From positions 24,002-88,001 of the forward strand of contig CAOQYA010000002.1 in the NCBI GenBank assembly GCA_948514155.1: 64,000 nt of DNA, in the 5' to 3' direction. The position numbers and the translations under genes are program-made. Each line of letters starts with the position of its first letter. Positions within the stretch are counted from its first letter, which is position 1. The notes beneath the pieces were generated by a model. The model saw only the letters and a program-made list of their open reading frames with translations. It was not told where the DNA came from and made no database searches. The stretch is from an uncultured Eubacteriales bacterium (GTDB lineage: Bacteria; Bacillota; Clostridia; Christensenellales; UBA1242). Below, piece after piece: positions 2,105 to 57,065 of the stretch.

Positions 2105-2416
2105 CCTCTTTTGCTTAGAATTTCAGCTTCGCAGAGAGTCGTGGCAAAATGCTTTAGCATTTTTGTTTGGCCGCGAAAAGGGAAATTTCAAGCGTAAAGG
2201 CGCAGATTTTTGAGTCTACTCAAAAACAAGCAAAAGCGCAGAAATTTCCTGTGGTCGGAGTGGCGGGATTTGCTCCGCTGTGAAGTTTGCGCGAAGAGGC
2301 TTGTGCGGCTATCACGCCGGGGCGGGAAAAACTTGCGCACAGGCAACTTTTTCTGCCGCCCGTTCAAATCCACGTTTTCACTTTTATAATTTTCAACTTT
2401 TGCTTAGAATTTCCCA
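2105..2416. repeat. GC-rich structured intergenic element(s) with nested direct repeats, including a 21-nt copy of the tRNA-Pro 3' end
   Basis: TGGTCGGAGTGGCGGGATTTG at 2252-2272 equals 2417-2437. CTTTTGCTTAGAATTTC at 2108-2124 equals 2397-2413. Hairpins at 2139-2176, 2181-2249 and 2207-2226. Homologous to 19863-19990 in inverted orientation. Confidence 0.7.
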
Positions 2417-2492
2417 TGGTCGGAGTGGCGGGATTTGAACCCACGGCCTCTTGGTCCCGAACCAAGCGCGCTACCAACTGCGCTACACCCCG
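2417..2492 (-). tRNA. tRNA-Pro (anticodon CGG), CCA encoded
   Basis: The reverse complement reads CGGGGTGTAGCGCAGTTGGTAGCGCGCTTGGTTCGGGACCAAGAGGCCGTGGGTTCAAATCCCGCCACTCCGACCA. The cloverleaf arms pair and the anticodon loop is TTCGGGA. Confidence 0.9.
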
Positions 2493-2515
2493 TTGTTGAA
2501 GGCATGATATGCCTT

Positions 2516-3922
2516 CTATTGCATAAATACATCTTTGTCGCCGTGTTCAAGAAAAGTTATATAATGATTTATCTCTTTTTCACTGAAAGGCGCGAAATTA
2601 TTGTAATTGCAACAAACATTAAAACCTGCTTTTTTGATTGGCGAAAGTTCATGAATGTGCCCAAACAAGTTTATGCGCCCTTTCTTACAATTAGTAGGCT
2701 TGTGAGTTAAATACACACTTTTTTTAAGCAAGGGAGAGTTTAACTCTATGCCGCCTTTGACGACGTTCTTAAAGCCTAGTGACAAAAGTTTTTGTCTGAA
2801 AAGTTCAACATCTTTGCCTGCATCGCGCTCTTCGTAGTTGCCCATGATAAGCACAATTTTTCCATTAAGTTTTTTTACGAAGTTATAGTCGCCGAAATCG
2901 CCCATGTGATAGACTGTGTCGTTTTTGCCAACAACGCCATTCCAGCGCTTGACGAGTTCATAGTCCATTTGCTCGACGCTATCAAAAGGGGTTAGGGTGA
3001 AATTTAATTTTCTTTTGGATGAAAAGTGAGTGTCTGAAATAAAGAAGATATGCGTCTTTGATGCAAGGTCCAGTGCTTCAATTTTGGAGACAAAATCAAG
3101 CCAAATCTCTGTTCGGCAATTTGTTTCATAGACATATTTTATCATTTGCTCTTGGCTTACTTTTGGCTGCTCTTTTAAAATTTCGTTTACAGGCAAAACT
3201 TTTTCTTTAAACCATTCTTTATGCAGAAGATATGCAATCGGGGCAAGGTCTTGCACAATTTTGATGCCGCGGCTAGGAATGAGAAACTGAGAATTTTTAA
3301 GTGTTTGATAGAGATATCTGCCCACTTTATTCACGCAAAGATGTGCACGGGCTTCATATATGCTGGTTACAATTTGCTTAACTGAAGAACTTGGAATGAT
3401 GGTGAAATTAACTCCGCTTTTAGCCACGATTTCAAATGCGCGCTTGTCTTTTGAGTAGTTAAAATCAGTGAATTTGTCATTAAAAATATGCTGGGTGCCT
3501 AGAAAAACCACATCCAATTTTTTTGCGATTTTTGGCTCCTTAAGAAGAGCGGAAGCAAGATTTGTAAGAGGCGCGATTGCAATAAAAGTTGTGTGCTTGT
3601 TTTTCTTGGCAATTCTGATTATTTCTTCGCTTGCCGGCGAGGATAATCCTCCTTCTGCGGGAAGAAAATCTGTGCTGCCGCGCTTGATTATGCTGAAATC
3701 TTTTTTATCAAATTTCATAAAAATGCGCTTTGCTTCCAGTTCGGCGTCTATCATTGCGTCTTTCAGTGAAAGCCTTTTAAAATTGGCAGAAAAAGGGGCA
3801 AGGCTTACAAGTTCAAGATTGATTTCAGGAGTTGATAAAACATAGGCAAGGGCGAATGCGTCGTCAACATCGTTGCAAAGGTCTGTGTCGATAATTGCAT
3901 TTATCGTGCGTTTCATATTCAA
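2516..3922 (-). CDS. Fusion protein: N-terminal inosine/uridine-preferring nucleoside hydrolase domain plus C-terminal calcineurin-like metallophosphoesterase domain
   Basis: N-terminus has DTDLCNDVDDAFALAYVL and IAPLTNLA (IUNH signatures). C-terminus has FFISDTHF, GDFGDY, GNYEE and GHIHE (metallophosphoesterase motifs). Confidence 0.75.
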   Translation of the reverse strand: MNMKRTINAIIDTDLCNDVDDAFALAYVLSTPEINLELVSLAPFSANFKRLSLKDAMIDAELEAKRIFMKFDKKDFSIIKRGSTDFLPAEGGLSSPASEEIIRIAKKNKHTTFIAIAPLTNLASALLKEPKIAKKLDVVFLGTQHIFNDKFTDFNYSKDKRAFEIVAKSGVNFTIIPSSSVKQIVTSIYEARAHLCVNKVGRYLYQTLKNSQFLIPSRGIKIVQDLAPIAYLLHKEWFKEKVLPVNEILKEQPKVSQEQMIKYVYETNCRTEIWLDFVSKIEALDLASKTHIFFISDTHFSSKRKLNFTLTPFDSVEQMDYELVKRWNGVVGKNDTVYHMGDFGDYNFVKKLNGKIVLIMGNYEERDAGKDVELFRQKLLSLGFKNVVKGGIELNSPLLKKSVYLTHKPTNCKKGRINLFGHIHELSPIKKAGFNVCCNYNNFAPFSEKEINHYITFLEHGDKDVFMQ

Positions 3923-4017: not shown

Positions 4018-4839
4018 ATGATAAAAATTATTGTAGACTCAACCGCTTACATCCCTAAAGAGTTTATAGAGGAAAACGATATTGCAGTGGTGCCACTGCG
4101 CGTGTTATATTTAGATAAAGAGTTTGAGGAGGGTCTCCCGGGCTCTTTTGACGAGTTTTTTGCTTCTTTCACAAAAACAAAAATCTTCCCAAAAACATCG
4201 CAGCCGTCGCCTGAGGCGTTTATCGCCGCATACAACAAGGTGATAGACGAGGGCAACGAGGCGATTGTGTTCACAATTTCTGCCTCGCTTTCGGGAACAA
4301 ACTCTGTTGCAAATCTTTCTCGCGAAAGTTGCAAAGACCCAAGTAAAATAACCGTTATGGACTCTAAGTCGACCGGCCAAAACATTTGGGGCTACTGCAT
4401 GGAAGTGATTGAAAAGGCAAAAGAAGGCTGGAGTAGGGCGCAGATTGTCGAATACATTGAAACCTTGCAAGTGAACAGCCAAATTTGTTTTGTGCCAGAT
4501 AGTCTCGATTATCTTAAGAATGGCGGACGCATTGGCAAAGTGAGTGCTGTTCTTGGCTCGCTTTTGCAAATTAAGCCAATTTTAACTTTTAAGCAGGGAA
4601 CACTGCTTTGCGCAAAGAAGGTCTTTGGCGTGGCGAAGGCAATCACAGAACTTATCACAATGATACCAAAAAATGTGAAGCGTCTTTTCGCCATTCACAT
4701 TGCGAACACTAAATATTTTGATATGCTTCATGAAAAAATGAAAGAGTCTTTCCCTGATGCAACAATATATGAGGGTGAACTTGGTCCTGTTGTGGCTGCG
4801 CATATCGGTCCGGCAATCGGAGTTTGCTATATATGTTAA
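4018..4839 (+). CDS. DegV family fatty-acid-binding protein
   Basis: MIKIIVDSTAYIP... and a DegV-like profile throughout. RBS GGAGGG lies upstream. Confidence 0.85.
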   Translation: MIKIIVDSTAYIPKEFIEENDIAVVPLRVLYLDKEFEEGLPGSFDEFFASFTKTKIFPKTSQPSPEAFIAAYNKVIDEGNEAIVFTISASLSGTNSVANLSRESCKDPSKITVMDSKSTGQNIWGYCMEVIEKAKEGWSRAQIVEYIETLQVNSQICFVPDSLDYLKNGGRIGKVSAVLGSLLQIKPILTFKQGTLLCAKKVFGVAKAITELITMIPKNVKRLFAIHIANTKYFDMLHEKMKESFPDATIYEGELGPVVAAHIGPAIGVCYIC

Positions 4840-5540
4840 GAAAACTCGCTTTAGTCGTTGGCGCGACGGGTGATATTGGAAAAGTTGTAGCCGAAAAGTT
4901 ATCACTAAATGGCTACAATCTTCTTTTATGTGGGCATGTAGGCAAATTTTCGCTAGATAACATTTGCACCGAGCATAGGGAAATGCGCTTTGATATATCT
5001 TCGCCAAAAGAAGTTGAAGAGACCTTTGACCATATCAAAGCTTCTGCTTCCCAAGTTGACCTCGTTGTTAATTGTGCCGGAATTGCGGAAAAAGAAGGGA
5101 TGCTTATCGACCGCGCGGACGAAGAGATTGAAAGGGTGATATCTGTTAATTTGAACGGAACAATCTTTGTTAACAAACATGCTCCGTCAGTTCTCAAAAA
5201 AGGCGGATGCATTATTAACATCTCCTCATTTTTGGGAGTTCAAGGCTGCAGTTGTGAAGCCGTGTATGCTGCGTCAAAAGGTGGGATAATCACTCTTACA
5301 AAGTCGCTCGCAAAAGAATATGCGCCAATGGGAATAAGAGTTAATTGCATCAGCCCGGGCTACATAAACACAAAAATGAACGCCGAGTTCTCGGAAGAGG
5401 AAAAAGCGTGGCTTGTCAAAAAAACTCCGCTCTCAAGAATGGGTGAGCCTGTCGATGTTGCAGAGGTAGTTTTGTTTCTTGCAGAGAACTCGTATATCAC
5501 AGGTGAAAATCTTGTTGTCAGCGGCGGACTGCTTATTTAG
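4824..5540 (+). CDS. SDR family oxidoreductase (FabG-like)
   Basis: Motifs VVGATGDIG (Rossmann), NISS and YAASKGG (catalytic Y-x3-K). Confidence 0.8.
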   Translation: MLYMLRKLALVVGATGDIGKVVAEKLSLNGYNLLLCGHVGKFSLDNICTEHREMRFDISSPKEVEETFDHIKASASQVDLVVNCAGIAEKEGMLIDRADEEIERVISVNLNGTIFVNKHAPSVLKKGGCIINISSFLGVQGCSCEAVYAASKGGIITLTKSLAKEYAPMGIRVNCISPGYINTKMNAEFSEEEKAWLVKKTPLSRMGEPVDVAEVVLFLAENSYITGENLVVSGGLLI

Positions 5541-5578
5541 CGAGTATTCTTTCATAAAACGCACAATATATTGGCAAA

Positions 5579-5601
5579 AGCAGCAAATTCGCTGCTTTTT
5601 T
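5579..5601 (+). terminator. Rho-independent terminator after the SDR gene
   Basis: AGCAGC-aaattc-GCTGCT followed by a T-run. Confidence 0.65.
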
Positions 5602-5711
5602 CATATATTTTTGATAATAACTTGCATTCGGCATAAAAGGCTTCTTTTCGCTAAAAGAGGCTGTTTTTTTTGATTTTACATGCTTTAAAATTGTGTGCAA
5701 GGAGGCAAAGC

Positions 5712-11136: not shown

Positions 11137-11141
11137 AAAAA

Positions 11142-11164
11142 AGTTGTCGTTTGACAACTTTTTT
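11142..11164. terminator. Bidirectional terminator between spoVAE and the XRE gene
   Basis: AGTTGTC-gttt-GACAACT with A and T runs. Confidence 0.7.
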
Positions 11165-11366
11165 AATCTTCTAAGCCCAAAATATAATCGCTTGAAACTT
11201 TATAGAATTTTGCAAGTTTTATTATCATTTCAGCATCTGGATAACTTTTGTTTCTTTCCCATAAAGAAATTGTGTCTTGCGACACGCCTAACTCTTTAGC
11301 AAGTTTTGTTTGAGATAGCCCTAACTCTTTTCTTAATTCAATCAGTCTTTTCGATATTATTTCCAT
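11163..11366 (-). CDS. XRE-family helix-turn-helix transcriptional regulator (67 aa)
   Basis: LRKELGLSQTKLAKELGVSQDTISLWERNKSYP is a classic Cro/C1 HTH. Confidence 0.85.
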   Translation of the reverse strand: MEIISKRLIELRKELGLSQTKLAKELGVSQDTISLWERNKSYPDAEMIIKLAKFYKVSSDYILGLED

Positions 11367-11425
11367 AGTTTAATTTTAAAGAAACAAGCCCATAAAAATT
11401 CAATTACGAAAAAATCGCGTATTTT

Positions 11426-11632
11426 TTACCATTTAACCCTGCCAAGAAGTTCGTCAGCCGAAACATCAAAGAGGTCGCAAAGGACAACAAGACTTTCAAG
11501 GCTAGGATGTATTTTTTCGCATTCCCACAACGACACAGTGTCCTGAGAAACAAACAAAGCATCGGCAACTTCTTGCTGTGTGAGGTTGCATTGTTTTCTG
11601 AGTTCTCTGATTTTCTTTCCAATTTCTATCAT
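11426..11632 (-). CDS. XRE-family helix-turn-helix transcriptional regulator (68 aa), paralog of the neighbour
   Basis: LRKQCNLTQQEVADALFVSQDTVSLWECEKIHP. Confidence 0.85.
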   Translation of the reverse strand: MIEIGKKIRELRKQCNLTQQEVADALFVSQDTVSLWECEKIHPSLESLVVLCDLFDVSADELLGRVKW

Positions 11633-11653
11633 GTTAAAATTTTACTAGAAACA

Positions 11654-11694
11654 TTCGTAAATTATTTGACATACGAAATATTTTCGTATAAAAT
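11654..11694 (+). promoter_or_regulatory. Divergent control region: promoter with a palindromic operator
   Basis: TTGACA (11666-11671), 17 nt, then TAAAAT (11689-11694). Palindrome TACGAAA-tat-TTTCGTA (11672-11688) fills the spacer. A third TTCGTA half-site lies at 11654-11659. Confidence 0.55.
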
Positions 11695-11711
11695 TTATTT
11701 GTGGAGGTCAC

Positions 11712-12029
11712 ATGATTTGCGAAATTGTTTTTCTTTTCTTCTATCAGCCTGATTATTATCTTCAACGCAAGGCGGTGAGAAATGAATTAAGGGCATTAAA
11801 GAATGAGTTAATCGGGCAGGGTGTAAAGTTTTTTCAGTATAGGGGAAGGCTTACACATACAAAAGAAGATATTCTATCTTGCTTTGAAACTCAGTTAAGT
11901 GAACTAGAGGCTGAAAAATTTATTGTCATTTACAGCCGAGACGAAGATTTTAAAGAGTTGTATAAATTTGGTCGAGATATTGTTGGATATAAAATAAGAG
12001 AAGCAACGGTTGAAAATTATCCGATGTAA
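11712..12029 (+). CDS. Hypothetical protein (105 aa), divergent from the XRE pair
   Basis: ORF with GGAGGT upstream. No recognisable family. Confidence 0.4.
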   Translation: MICEIVFLFFYQPDYYLQRKAVRNELRALKNELIGQGVKFFQYRGRLTHTKEDILSCFETQLSELEAEKFIVIYSRDEDFKELYKFGRDIVGYKIREATVENYPM

Positions 12030-12031
12030 AT

Positions 12032-12066
12032 ATCTTGTGTCTATTATGTCATAAAACACACAAGAT
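12032..12066 (+). repeat. Copy 2 of the dispersed motif, embedded in a 9-bp-stem hairpin
   Basis: ATCTTGTGT (12032-12040) pairs with ACACAAGAT (12058-12066). The motif CTATTATGTCATAAAACACACAA is at 12041-12063. Confidence 0.7.
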
Positions 12067-12234
12067 GTAGACTAAAATTTAAAATAGCCTTGGTTTTTTG
12101 ATGTTGGCTTGTCCGGCTGCGTCGTAGGTTTTTTATGATAATGGCTATGTTCTAAAATCAAGCATCTTACATGTTATCTTACATGTTTTTAATATTTGTT
12201 CAACAAAAGCGGGGACTGAGCATATAAATTTAAT

Positions 12235-13723: not shown

Positions 13724-13825
13724 GCAAAAAGTATAGCATATCGTTTGACAAAAAGAAAAGAAATGTGCTAGAATTTTTATAGTTTTAAAAAGCAATGACG
13801 AAAGAACATGGCCGAGTGTTTGCAA

Positions 13826-14026
13826 ATTCAGAGAGGTTTAGGTTGGTGCGATAAACTGTTGCAATTTCGGTGAATTCACTTTCCGAGCTGTCCGGCTGAA
13901 AATTTAAGTAGGCTGGGTCGGGTGCGACCGTGATATCGCAACTTGAGGGCGCAACAAAAAGCGCTGAAATTAGGTGGTAACGTGAAAGAGAACTCTTTCG
14001 CCCTAATGTGGCGGGGGAGTTTTTTT
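13826..14026 (+). promoter_or_regulatory. T-box leader (tRNA-Phe-responsive) with terminator/antiterminator, upstream of pheS
   Basis: T-box sequence AAATTAGGTGGTAACGTG (13967-13984). Terminator CTCTTTCGCC-ctaatgt-GGCGGGGGAG plus a T-run (13993-14026). UUC triplets are present in the upstream stem region. Confidence 0.8.
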
Positions 14027-19810: not shown

Positions 19811-19835
19811 GCCGCAAATTCTTGCGGCTTTTTTT
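19811..19835 (+). terminator. Rho-independent terminator of the pheST-nifS-thiI unit
   Basis: GCCGCAA-attc-TTGCGGC followed by T7. Confidence 0.8.
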
Positions 19836-19990
19836 GCGCCAAAAATTTTTTTTGGCGCGCTGGGCGAACATGAACTTGTTGCTTGTTTTCGAAGGGGCTC
19901 GAAAAGCTGCGCGCGGGCAGTTCATGTTCGCCTACTCGCGGCCAAACGAAAATCGCCACGCGATTTTGCCGCGGCTCTCGTGCGAAGAGG
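19836..19990 (+). repeat. GC-rich hairpin-dense intergenic element (type 1)
   Basis: Hairpins at 19836-19858. A 13-bp inverted repeat at 19863-19875/19920-19932 encloses 19886-19905. A further hairpin spans 19937-19973. Block-wise homologous to 2131-2250 on the opposite strand. Confidence 0.7.
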
Positions 19991-20119
19991 GGCGATGTTT
20001 TTAATATCAAAATTTTTGGCACATTCTCTTTATTTTGGGTTGGGTGAGTGCTATCATTAAATCTGCGCCGAAATTAGGCTTATGCATACTCGTTTATATT
20101 TATAAAAACGAAATTTATA

Positions 20120-24346: not shown

Positions 24347-25375
24347 TTAGTTTATTTTAATTTTTGTTGCCACATCCTTTCGCATATCTTCGCTGATTGC
24401 TGCATAATGCTTCTTTGTGGTGTTGACGTCGCGGTGACCAAGAACGTCGGCAACGATGTAAATGTCCTTTGTTTCACGATACAAGTTAGTGCCAAATGTG
24501 CTGCGCAGTTTGTGCGGAGAAATTTTTTTGAGGGGAGTTGCTTCTCTGGCAAATTTCTTAACAAGATTTTCAACTGCTCGAGTTGATATGCGTTTCTTTT
24601 GAAGGCTGACAAACATGGCATGCTCAATTTCGTCAAGACCAAGTGTTGCCCGCTTTTTAAGCCAGATTTTAAGCGCATCGGCAACTTCTTCGGAAAAATA
24701 TAGCACTGTTTGATTTCCGCCTTTTCGCGTGACTTTAAAGGCATTTTGTGAAAAGTCGAAATCTTCGATATTCAGGCCGATACACTCGGAAATACGAATG
24801 CCGGTGCCAAGAAAAAGGGTGACAAGGGCGTTGTCGCGTTCTTTTGTGTTTTCATTGTAAGCTTTTTGGCGCTTCGAAAATGTGTTATTCGCAGAAACGG
24901 CGTCAATCATTCTGGAAACTTCGTCGGGCTCAAGGCGAATAATCTCTTTGTTGTGCAGTTTTGGAGTCTGAACTTTGCTCGCCACATTTGAAGAGATAAG
25001 GTCGTGATTGAAAAGATATTTGAAAAGGCTGCGCACAGCTGCGAGCTTTCTTGCTTTGCCGCGTTCGCCATTTTTAATGATTTTCCCTTCCATTTCATAG
25101 TAGGAAAGGTGGGAAAGAAATTGTTCAATTATGTTCGATTTTAGACCGCTAAGGTCATTAAGCGAGATTTCGCTCTTTTTTTTGTGTAAGTTTTCCGCTA
25201 AAAAGTCAAAAAAGATATTAAGGTCCATTGCGTAGTTGAGCCTTGTAAGCGAAGAGGAGTTGTTTTCAATGCCGATAAAGAAGTCATAGCAAAAATCCGG
25301 CAGTTCTGCGGTGCGCTGCCTTATCTTCCTCTGATTTGTTAAATCTCTTTTTTCAAAGTAGGAAAGCGTTTTCAT
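24347..25375 (-). CDS. Tyrosine site-specific recombinase (Xer/phage-integrase family)
   Basis: Catalytic region LRSTFGTNLY...ADVLGHRDVNTTKKHY (R..H-x-x-R..Y) and an N-terminal SAM-like core-binding domain. Start is either ATG 25375 (leaderless relative to the candidate promoter) or ATG 25393. Confidence 0.85.
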   Translation of the reverse strand: MKTLSYFEKRDLTNQRKIRQRTAELPDFCYDFFIGIENNSSSLTRLNYAMDLNIFFDFLAENLHKKKSEISLNDLSGLKSNIIEQFLSHLSYYEMEGKIIKNGERGKARKLAAVRSLFKYLFNHDLISSNVASKVQTPKLHNKEIIRLEPDEVSRMIDAVSANNTFSKRQKAYNENTKERDNALVTLFLGTGIRISECIGLNIEDFDFSQNAFKVTRKGGNQTVLYFSEEVADALKIWLKKRATLGLDEIEHAMFVSLQKKRISTRAVENLVKKFAREATPLKKISPHKLRSTFGTNLYRETKDIYIVADVLGHRDVNTTKKHYAAISEDMRKDVATKIKIN

Positions 25376-25381
25376 GCTCTT

Positions 25382-25410
25382 ATTATACAACATCCACTAG
25401 TTTTTGTAAA
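25382..25410 (-). promoter_or_regulatory. Candidate sigma-A promoter of the recombinase gene (leaderless arrangement)
   Basis: On the minus strand: TTTACA (25410-25405), 17 nt, TATAAT (25387-25382), 6 nt, then ATG 25375. Confidence 0.5.
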
Positions 25411-41869: not shown

Positions 41870-42215
41870 CTCCTTGAATTCGCGAAGGACACCAAATTTT
41901 TTAACGCGGACACGCCTAAAGGCTGGCCGCTAAAATTCGGATTTCCCTCGCGGGCTCCCTTCCGCATCACTCGCCGCACCTCGGGTGCTTGCGTCGTGAT
42001 AGATGGGCTAGTCTAACTACGCTCGAAAAGTAAACTTTTCGGCTTTTTGGCCGGGCGAAGCCCTTCCACCAAAAAGTTAGACATACGCTAGATTGGAATT
42101 AGAACTCTCTGCCCTTCCTTCCAAAACCAACTTTTGCGTTTTTTAATTTTAAACTTTTGGTCGGGCACAGCCCTTCCCCTCCAAAACTGGATTTCGCAGA
42201 TTATTGTTAAGAAAG
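41870..42215 (-). repeat. GC-rich structured intergenic element (type 2, long form) abutting the yebC RBS
   Basis: Shared blocks with 56875-57065: TTAACGCGGRCACG, CCGCTA, TTCCCTC, GGGC-NNN-GCCC hairpin units (42044-42075, 42155-42186, half unit 42111-42126) and CTGGATKTCGCA. Confidence 0.7.
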
Positions 42216-44099: not shown

Positions 44100-44257
44100 G
44101 TCTCCTTTTATAAAAAATTTGGTGAAAGACAAATTGCTTCCACCAAAAAACTTATTTTATTTTGATATAAAGTTTTTTAACACGGCCTAAATCCTAGCGT
44201 TTGACCGGTGAGAAGTGGAAACTTCTGCTTTCGATGTGTTAATATTAGCACACTTTT
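44100..44257 (-). promoter_or_regulatory. infC-rpmI-rplT leader with attenuator hairpin (L20-leader-like)
   Basis: On the minus strand: TTGGTGGAAG-caatttgt-CTTTCACCAA (44119-44146) followed by a T-run, just before the infC RBS. Upstream hairpin AGAAGT-ttcc-ACTTCT. Confidence 0.5.
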
Positions 44258-50973: not shown

Positions 50974-51100
50974 GGGGCGACGCAATCGGCGCGCGCGTAG
51001 CGCGCGCCCCCGCCCTCGGGCGCCAAGCGCAAAAAGTATTTTTGCGAGCCGCCCGAGGGCTGTAAATTTCGCCTCCGGCGAAATTTGCTTGCGTCGCCCC
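50974..51100. repeat. GC-rich perfect four-way-junction (cloverleaf-like) palindromic element between spoIIIAE and spoIIIAF
   Basis: Outer 12-bp stem 50974-50985/51089-51100. Arms: 50988-51008 (9 bp); 51012-51022/51050-51060 (11 bp) enclosing 51028-51046 (8 bp); and 51064-51086 (10 bp). All pairs are Watson-Crick. Confidence 0.8.
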
Positions 51101-56874: not shown

Positions 56875-57065
56875 CCTGGGGAGGCACCGACCTCGTTTAA
56901 CGCGGGCACGGTGCTTTGCTAACCTAACCGCTACTCGGTCGGTTCCCTCCCAATCTCCCTCCACTGGCGGGGCTCACCCAGCTTTCCCTCAAGCAAATTC
57001 ATGAATGAATTTCTTTCGGTTGTCGCTGGGCAAAGCCCTTCCCCGACAAAGCTGGATGTCGCATA
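56875..57065 (-). repeat. GC-rich structured intergenic element (type 2, short form) abutting the RBS of the TIM-barrel gene
   Basis: Same blocks as 41870-42215: TTAACGCGGGCACG 56897-56910, CCGCTA 56928-56933, TTCCCTC 56943-56949, hairpin unit 57020-57049, CTGGATGTCGCA 57052-57063. Confidence 0.7.

Follow-up and report, generated by a model that had tools for sequence, protein, structure and literature searches.

Why does the 3′ end of a tRNA-Pro gene recur, in direct orientation, inside the GC-rich DNA that separates the gene from its downstream neighbor? The original prediction for the 64,000 nt stretch analyzed here (referred to as the window) recognized in this duplication the classic footprint of an integrase, and proposed either a decayed integrative element or mobile GC-rich DNA with long target duplications. 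Short tRNA-end repeats are routinely taken as proof of an integrase event and are used to delimit genomic islands. Here, a similar footprint surrounds a gene-less 124 nt insert, and a comparable long duplication was found at a non-tRNA site of the same genome. The proteins closest to those encoded in the window were from gut MAGs, and the relatives were labeled uncultured Clostridia, Christensenella sp., Candidatus Onthoplasma, and Candidatus Caccovivens.

Repeats and blocks in the tRNA-Pro spacer

The genes around the spacer were all located on the minus strand. The features of the locus, listed in the direction of the tRNA strand, were as follows.

2516-3922, minus strand: gene for a nucleoside hydrolase/phosphoesterase fusion
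2417-2492, minus strand: tRNA-Pro(CGG), intact, with encoded CCA (ARAGORN; Rfam tRNA model at 2420-2492, 69.8 bits)
2417-2437, minus strand: Y, the tRNA-end repeat copy inside the tRNA (...CAAATCCCGCCACTCCGACCA)
within 2105-2416: the 312 nt spacer between tRNA-Pro and the 178-aa gene
2355-2416, minus strand: tRNA trailer, which includes X, is common to the related contig L025, and ends with GTGGATTTGAACGGGCGG on the tRNA strand
2397-2413, minus strand: X, the proximal 17 nt flank repeat (GAAATTCTAAGCAAAAG on the tRNA strand)
2362-2371: 10 nt inverted T-loop copy (GTTCAAATCC on the plus strand; on the tRNA strand GGATTTGAAC, complementary to the T loop)
2273-2354: E2core, an 82 nt GC-rich block with two hairpins (from folds)
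2252-2272, minus strand: Y′, which repeats the final 21 nt of tRNA-Pro exactly (repeat search)
2125-2251: E1, a 127 nt structured element nested in the distal repeat copy, with a homologue at 19854-19988 on the opposite strand
2108-2124, minus strand: X′, the distal 17 nt flank repeat (repeat search)
2095-2093, minus strand: ATG of the 178-aa gene, function not assigned
beyond the 178-aa gene, minus strand: C1 peptidase gene

Five independent MAG contigs were 100% identical over 510 nt including the repeat region, and a Logan contig from another sample (L024) covered the entire spacer with four nucleotide differences. Because six independent assemblies agreed in this way, the arrangement was considered real and not an assembly artefact. 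Short-read Logan contigs of the species and its sister species (L006-L010, L039, L045, L011, and L024) broke within tRNA-Pro at approximately 2448-2460, probably as a consequence of the tRNA sequence being common to other genomes or genes in the same samples. Since these contigs ended inside the tRNA, the tRNA locus of the sister species was not readable. The spacer (2105-2416) contained only spurious ORFs of ≤70 aa, none of which gave a Pfam match at E≤1, and the GC-rich blocks had no match in Rfam 15 (gathering threshold; E≤10 for the spacer).

The last 21 nt of tRNA-Pro (TGGTCGGAGTGGCGGGATTTG) occurred exactly twice in the 64 kb, at 2252-2272 and 2417-2437, and no match was obtained in 100 shuffles even when three mismatches were allowed. 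Together with part of the flank, the repeat extended to 30 nt at 93% identity (2243-2272 versus 2408-2437). The 17 nt flank repeat (CTTTTGCTTAGAATTTC) was exact at 2108-2124 and 2397-2413, where 0.11 occurrences were expected by chance, so that both direct repeats of the original prediction were confirmed. On the tRNA strand, the order of the parts was Y, TGG, X, an AT-rich stretch ending with GTGGATTTGAACGGGCGG, E2core, Y′, CAG-GAAATTTC plus the rest of E1, X′, and AGG-TTGAATGTC-ATG. When E1 was taken out, Y′-CAG-X′ matched Y-TGG-X at 39 of 41 positions in the window and at 43 of 45 in L024, in which Y′ measures 25 nt (GGTTCAAATCC); thus, a direct repeat of 41 nt (45 nt in that one strain) flanks 124 nt. 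After the end of the tRNA, the repeats differ in a region of 3 nt, and identity then resumes for 17/17 nt in the non-tRNA flank, indicating that local DNA was copied. A simple tandem duplication of 165 nt was rejected, as its units are not colinear: X opens one of them but is found close to the end of the second.

The distal flank repeat X′ abuts and forms part of the Shine-Dalgarno sequence of the 178-aa gene (AAGAGG, 2105-2110). Because the palindrome GAAATTTC occurs four times (2118, 2182, 2241, and 2408), several direct and inverted repeats are nested within the locus. The T loop and the region of 2362-2371 form inverted repeat I2 (17 nt, 82% complementary), and in folds of the L024 sequence the inverted T-loop copy pairs with the T-loop part of Y′, closing E2 as a two-hairpin domain.

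Related genomes and a second copy of E1

In the related contig L025, a hydrolase gene (77% identical, without the C-terminal domain) is accompanied by the same tRNA-Pro(CGG) and a similar trailer, TGGGAAATTTCAGAATTTCAAAGAACAATAAAAGTGTGAACGTGGATTTGAACGGGCGG. The tRNA is followed there by TGGGAAATT...ATAAAAGTGTGAACGTGGATTTGAACGGGCGG, similarity to the window ends right after GGGCGG, and an unrelated terminator and a convergent collagen-like gene lie downstream of the trailer. The 10 nt inverted T-loop copy is also present in L025, and E2core is absent from it. Because L025 has only the tRNA and the trailer, E2core, Y′, and E1 are peculiar to the lineage of the window, and the trailer with its inverted T-loop copy is older. 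Within the window X and X′ are identical, yet the X part of L025 is very different from them; this speaks for a duplication younger than the split of the two lineages, or for copies kept alike by gene conversion. An AG/TT strain difference at the edge of Y′ (L024) fits both a young duplication and gene conversion.

The hydrolase of the window (2516-3922) is a 466-aa fusion of IU_nuc_hydro and metallophosphoesterase, and that of L025 (592-1464) comprises 290 aa without the second domain; the tRNA comes directly after the gene in both. The hydrolase stop codon and the tRNA are separated by a hairpin (window 2493-2515, AAGGCATATCATGCCTT; L025 1472-1494, AAGGCTTCTTATAGCCTT) that keeps its position and stem and differs in its loop.

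Two more distant contigs, L029 and L031, carry the hydrolase gene, tRNA-Pro(CGG), and an AT-rich spacer with a promoter, followed by a cluster of six tRNA genes, and contain no GC-rich block. Homologues of the 178-aa gene were located in 11 other genomes; tRNA-Pro was upstream in none of them, and the leader was not conserved. Since the downstream gene or the gene order differs in every relative found, the search for an empty site yielded no clean one for the tRNA locus, whereas it succeeded at a second locus, B, described below.

The tRNA cluster of L031 (4920-5110) has extra DNA relative to L029, in the order tRNA-Phe positions 2-35, a 105 nt GC-rich hairpin insert, 21 nt of T arm, an inverted 15 nt T-arm copy, and an intact tRNA-Phe. 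Segments of tRNA-Met and tRNA-Thr likewise recur as inverted 15-16 nt copies next to the respective genes (4440-4454 and 5367-5382), and these copies are absent in L029. The L031 insert shares only a 19 nt hairpin with E1 (p<0.001) and, as the common sequence is limited to this hairpin, it was rejected as a member of the E1 family. Partial direct and inverted tRNA copies with hairpin-rich inserts are thus not unique to the window. The L031 pattern fits either hairpin-seeking insertion or template switching during replication (PMC8794818, PMC8604942).

As to the GC-rich sequence itself, the original prediction placed it at four other loci. One of these stood, for the E1 half only: 2126-2249 (plus strand) is homologous to 19854-19988 (minus strand), as detected by BLAST, with 78-87% column identity in alignments. 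The GC-rich regions near 42.0, 51.0, and 57.0 kb proved to be different sequences. The E1-B homology was recovered by nhmmer with E values of 1e-31 to 1e-34 (1.7e-31 for E1), and the covariance-model scores of the family were 128 (128.5 for E1) and 164 bits. The features at the second locus were as follows.

19859-19997: B, the second E1-family copy, between the thiI terminator and the argR promoter, an insertion relative to contig L034
19829-19858, plus strand: perfectly palindromic left target copy of B (GCGCCAAAAA-TTT-TTTTTGGCGC), aligned to the single-copy site of L034 (inverted repeat I4)
19998-20022, plus strand: right target copy of B, TTTTTAATATCAAAATTTTTGGCAC, from the alignment to L034

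Contig L034, from the same sample as the sister-species contig L011, is 82% identical to the window at the DNA level. B is absent from it, and its thiI-argR spacer is 159 nt shorter. The empty site in L034 reads GCGGC-TTTTTTTATGCAAAATTTTTGGCAC-ATT, with TTTTTTTATGCAAAATTTTTGGCAC in single copy, whereas this sequence is present on both sides of B in the window; correspondingly, positions 7414-7433 of L034 were aligned by BLAST to both 19831-19850 and 19998-20017. The 25 nt target stretch reads TTTTTTT-GCGCCAAAAATTTTTTTTGGCGC on the left and TTTTTAATATCAAAATTTTTGGCAC on the right. B is therefore flanked by a duplication of approximately 25 nt of AT-rich palindromic target, and another element copy with duplicated target, which had been named as a check of the mobile-DNA option, was thereby found. 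B is also present in strain L035 (96% nucleotide identity), so that presence and absence differ at orthologous sites, L034 versus the window and L035. Although the comparison has no outgroup, a gain of B by insertion would be a simpler reading than its loss in L034, because a homologous copy lies at an unrelated locus.

Between the window and L035, B shows 5 differences in 139 nt, which is about the background rate (4% overall), and all five are at unpaired positions of B. Dinucleotide changes in hairpin loops lengthen stems at 19893-94 (in B) and at 19847-48 (in the left target copy, which is now a perfect palindrome). E1 and B fold into the same helices despite sequence change. Each of the 19 pairs that could be aligned is retained, one change being compensatory and two one-sided; this comparison involves two independent sequences only, and a count of one compensatory change was also reached in 150 of 500 shuffles. 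One long stem is wholly different in sequence and paired in both copies (GGGAAATTTC/GAAATTTCC versus GGCGAACATGAAC/GTTCATGTTCGCC). Taken from two independent sequences, this pattern is suggestive of selection on the structure of E1 and does not amount to statistical proof. The idea that E1 encodes a bridge or guide RNA was discarded, as the conserved hairpin does not vary with the target.

Searches for the E1 family with nhmmer and the covariance model covered 205 kb and returned the members E1 (A), B, and the L035 copy of B; no further copy was detected across the window, 20 kb of DNA next to it (L059 and L061), and approximately 120 kb from relatives. In 84 kb of this genome, E1 is thus represented by two dispersed copies and E2core by one, no second E2core copy being detected there. 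E2core gave no match in BLAST, viral-contig, phage, and plasmid searches, and the spacer block as a whole had no BLAST match to known phages and plasmids. Scans of IMG/VR with E1, E2core, trailer, and junction patterns returned 0 matches, as did two JGI metagenome scans (one with the junction pattern and one with the E1 core). No clear terminal inverted repeats were recognized in E1, the inverted repeat around B being the palindromic target itself, and no candidate mobilizing enzyme was found near the elements.

Origin of the tRNA-end copy

The reading that we tentatively prefer, with a confidence a little short of even, is that the tRNA-end copy is a by-product of the insertion of gene-less GC-rich DNA with long local duplications, and not a functional RNA. 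Two gene-less, hairpin-rich pieces of GC-rich DNA would have been inserted downstream of tRNA-Pro in the window lineage. The first event would have set 124 nt between two copies of a local stretch of 41-45 nt, spanning the tRNA from the T loop through CCA and up to 20 nt beyond the gene. Because the stretch was duplicated and not replaced, the tRNA would have stayed intact, and the displaced Y′ and X′ would have come to lie next to the 178-aa gene. In the second event, E1 would have entered the displaced copy directly after CCA; on the tRNA strand, the CCA that terminates Y′ is immediately adjacent to the start of E1. The reverse order would require a repeat of non-contiguous pieces, so the two-step order would be the simplest. 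Candidate mechanisms are a staggered break with fill-in or copy-in during replication or repair, and the unfilled tRNA site would read tRNA-TGG-GAAATTCTAAGCAAAAG-AGGTTGAATGTCATG, with nothing between. We infer that the process at the tRNA locus was the same as that at B, and both the event order and the molecular mechanism are proposed on the same footing.

Insertion is supported by the homology of E1 to B, which is oppositely oriented and located elsewhere in the genome, and by L025, which has the tRNA and the trailer without E2core, Y′, and E1. The block-free spacers of L029 and L031, the tRNA copies beside a hairpin insert in L031, the lack of Pfam-matching ORFs, Rfam matches, and gene-strand promoters or terminators in the block, and the different shape of a phage attachment fragment for this tRNA (below) agree with it. 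The filled B site and its empty counterpart in L034 likewise lend direct support to the second option of the original prediction, mobile GC-rich DNA with long target duplications; its first option, a decayed integrase element, was neither proven nor excluded. Counting against insertion, L025 shares the AT-rich trailer, which is part of the 124 nt "insert"; the trailer is then older than the duplication, or an element was formerly present here in L025 too. The lengths of the duplications also vary (7-8 or 0 nt for E1 at the tRNA, approximately 25 nt for B, and 41-45 nt for the E2 event), which is not what one transposase would ordinarily produce. The missing clean empty site at the tRNA locus, the single copy of E2core and two copies of E1 in 84 kb, the lack of clear terminal inverted repeats and of a candidate enzyme nearby, and the comparison of B without an outgroup weigh on the same side.

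A decayed integrative element would account for the locus in another way, which we regard as a live but considerably less likely rival. A tyrosine integrase would have acted at the T loop, the tRNA 3′ end brought by the element would have restored the gene, the original end would be Y′, and an internal deletion would have left approximately 124 nt, into which E1 was later inserted. Williams is said to have named the T loop, in 2002, as one of the usual regions of integrase crossover, and the repeat does begin in this loop. The defining footprint of an island combines an intact tRNA with a directly oriented, displaced 3′ fragment (Islander, PMC4383910), and it is found here at 2417-2492 and 2252-2272, a short distance downstream as in tRNA-integrated islands and prophages. 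The best argument for such an element is that the trailer is kept in L025 with different DNA next to it, as would be expected of a shared element end with variable cargo; the inverted T-loop copy within the trailer is also in its favor.

Phages provide a further point for this explanation, since they use exactly this tRNA. The 21-mer was present in ten IMG/VR contigs. Viral contig L057 (7207-7282) ends with a full tRNA identical to tRNA-Pro(CGG) of the window, and viral contig L051 (4269-4320) contains a 52 nt fragment identical to its 3′ 52 nt, which extends from the anticodon stem to CCA and no further; a tyrosine integrase gene (4453-5631) is located 132 nt upstream of the fragment. Judging from these sequences, phages of related hosts use tRNA-Pro(CGG) as an attachment site. 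Y′ differs from the L051 attachment fragment, however, in its shorter length, in its start within the T loop, in the identity that continues beyond it into non-tRNA flank, and in the lack of any integrase or cargo nearby. The spacer contains neither an integrase gene nor any coding remnant; the nearest gene of the Phage_integrase family is about 22 kb away (24347-25393, annotated via the same gene in L035). Identity is not confined to the tRNA from loop to 3′ end: the repeat reaches 20 nt beyond the gene, and the 17/17 nt match outside the tRNA is neither needed nor predicted by integrase recombination. Moreover, only 124 nt lie between the repeats, unlike in islands and prophages, the block had no match in viral, phage, and plasmid searches, and a gene-less insert with a long duplication occurs at the non-tRNA site B of the same genome. 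A different kind of integrase may nevertheless have acted, with almost all of the element deleted afterwards.

An error of replication or repair without any mobile element is, in our estimate, a live rival of the same, low probability. The direct and inverted copies and the GC-rich hairpins would have been built next to the hairpin-rich tRNA gene by template switching or by copying at microhomologies; hairpins are known to arise and persist through template switching (PMC8794818, PMC8604942). The inverted T-loop copy between the direct repeats agrees with this explanation, as do the 15-16 nt inverted copies of tRNA-Met, tRNA-Phe, and tRNA-Thr segments and the duplicated, interrupted tRNA-Phe in L031. 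Strain differences are, in addition, often stem-lengthening dinucleotide changes in loops (AG/TT in Y′, 19847-48, and 19893-94), and the palindrome in the left target copy of B is now perfect. However, the presence of a 110 nt block at two loci 17 kb apart and in opposite orientations is left unexplained, the source of E2core is unaccounted for, and the inverted T-loop copy is older than the duplication, as L025 has the first without the second.

A bolder version of insertion, to which we give a similarly low probability, is a previously undescribed mobile DNA of uncultured gut Clostridia: small, gene-less, multi-hairpin, and GC-rich, it would land by stable hairpins (the T arm or 3′ end of a tRNA, or a terminator) at AT-rich palindromes and copy target stretches of considerable and variable length (approximately 25-45 nt), unlike classical transposases and integrases. 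Replication-coupled copy-in or synthesis primed from a nucleic-acid 3′ end would be the candidates for its mode of movement. A primer-binding site at 2252-2272, the plus strand of which complements the tRNA 3′ end, was rejected as a separate reading, since X′ after E1 indicates a DNA-level copy of the gene and its flank; it survives only within the undescribed-mobile-DNA reading.

A functional RNA appears very improbable. The spacer would be co-transcribed with the tRNA, and the tRNA-end copy and hairpins would regulate the 178-aa gene, act as a decoy, or provide a tRNA-like processing signal. As neither a promoter nor a terminator was predicted on the gene strand of the spacer, its co-transcription with the tRNA and the 178-aa gene is probable; furthermore, Y′ was able to form a T-arm-like hairpin in folds, the E1 helices are kept between copies, and X′ is part of the ribosome-binding site of the 178-aa gene. 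Against this, the Rfam tRNA model gave no second match even at E≤10, the region before Y′ resembled the 5′ part and 5′ flank of the tRNA only at chance level (p=0.32-0.60), and the folds were not tRNA-like and were mildly more stable than shuffles (z of -1.1 to -2.9). The block is also missing in relatives with the same tRNA, and B evolves at about the background rate. These results point to the spacer block being passenger DNA tolerated in a transcribed spacer. A tRNA pseudogene or tandem tRNA duplicate was rejected: a possible acceptor strand (CGGCGTG) lies at a suitable distance, but the 5′ alignment was at chance level (p=0.32; p=0.41-0.60), no tRNA-model match was obtained, and the fold was not tRNA-like.

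Known systems and other GC-rich elements

Small structured repeats with which the insertions can be compared include bcr1 of the Bacillus cereus group, the pneumococcal BOX, RUP, and SPRITE elements (PMC3049150), and the Correia and ERIC elements (PMC3184786). Like bacterial MITEs and structured repeats, the E1-family elements fall within 120-170 nt, are gene-less, intergenic, and strongly folded, and show stem-keeping differences, presence or absence between close relatives, and target duplication at their flanks. Unlike MITEs, they have no convincing terminal inverted repeats, number two copies in 84 kb, and are associated with long duplications of unequal length (approximately 25 and 41-45 nt), where those of MITEs have a fixed 2-10 bp; no autonomous insertion sequence related to the family was seen. 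Long direct repeats of variable length are known from the IS1634/IS4 group, whose members are kilobase-sized and encode a transposase. The resemblance to this group lies in the long, variable target duplications; no comparable kilobase transposase element is present in the window.

GC-rich palindromic DNA in AT-rich spacers is also typical of REP/BIME sequences and of the GC clusters of yeast mitochondria, REPs being about 35 nt long and present in hundreds of copies. The window resembles them in having GC-rich palindromes in AT-rich spacers and also within operons (element C, in spoIIIA), but its blocks are multi-hairpin domains of 80-150 nt in one to three copies. Hairpins arising from template switching and quasipalindrome correction (PMC8794818, PMC8604942) are similar with respect to stem-perfecting multi-nucleotide changes, inverted copies nearby, and the palindromic left target of B; template switching acts locally, however, and alone moves no 110 nt block to a second locus. 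The E1/B elements thus fall with the small structured interspersed repeats and are set apart from them by unusually long and unequal target duplications. If the pattern were genome-wide, it would represent an unusual family of small structured inserts in poorly known gut Clostridia and would urge caution against island calls made from tRNA fragments alone; the present evidence comprises a two-copy family with one documented filled and empty site.

Element C (50974-51100) is located inside the spoIIIA operon, between spoIIIAE and spoIIIAF. It comprises 127 nt of up to 82% GC and is multi-hairpin, with three internal hairpins closed by a perfect 12-bp stem (GGGGCGACGCAA/TTGCGTCGCCCC). It is unrelated in sequence to E1 and E2core and had no Rfam match. 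A hairpin motif of a "D" family, TTTTGG-N-CGGGC-NNA-GCCCTTCC-N-CCAAAA, occurs in three copies (42041-42075, 42150-42200, and 57010-57065) in two GC-rich intergenic regions, yebC-spoU and truB-AP endonuclease. The match between D2 and D3 had a z of 17.7, the motif has a REP-like look, and larger GC-rich stretches adjoin the copies (41870-42040 and 56905-57000).

A strain-variable segment lies between the spoVA genes and yunB (window 11137-12163 versus L035 1981-3522); from the ORF reading, it seems to hold putative small HTH-type genes in the window and contains a Fic-domain gene in L035. A match to the L20 leader upstream of the infC/rpmI/rplT region (44105-44236, minus strand) was below threshold (37.7 bits, E=8e-4), and a T-box leader upstream of pheS (13786-14008, plus strand) scored 107 bits, above threshold.
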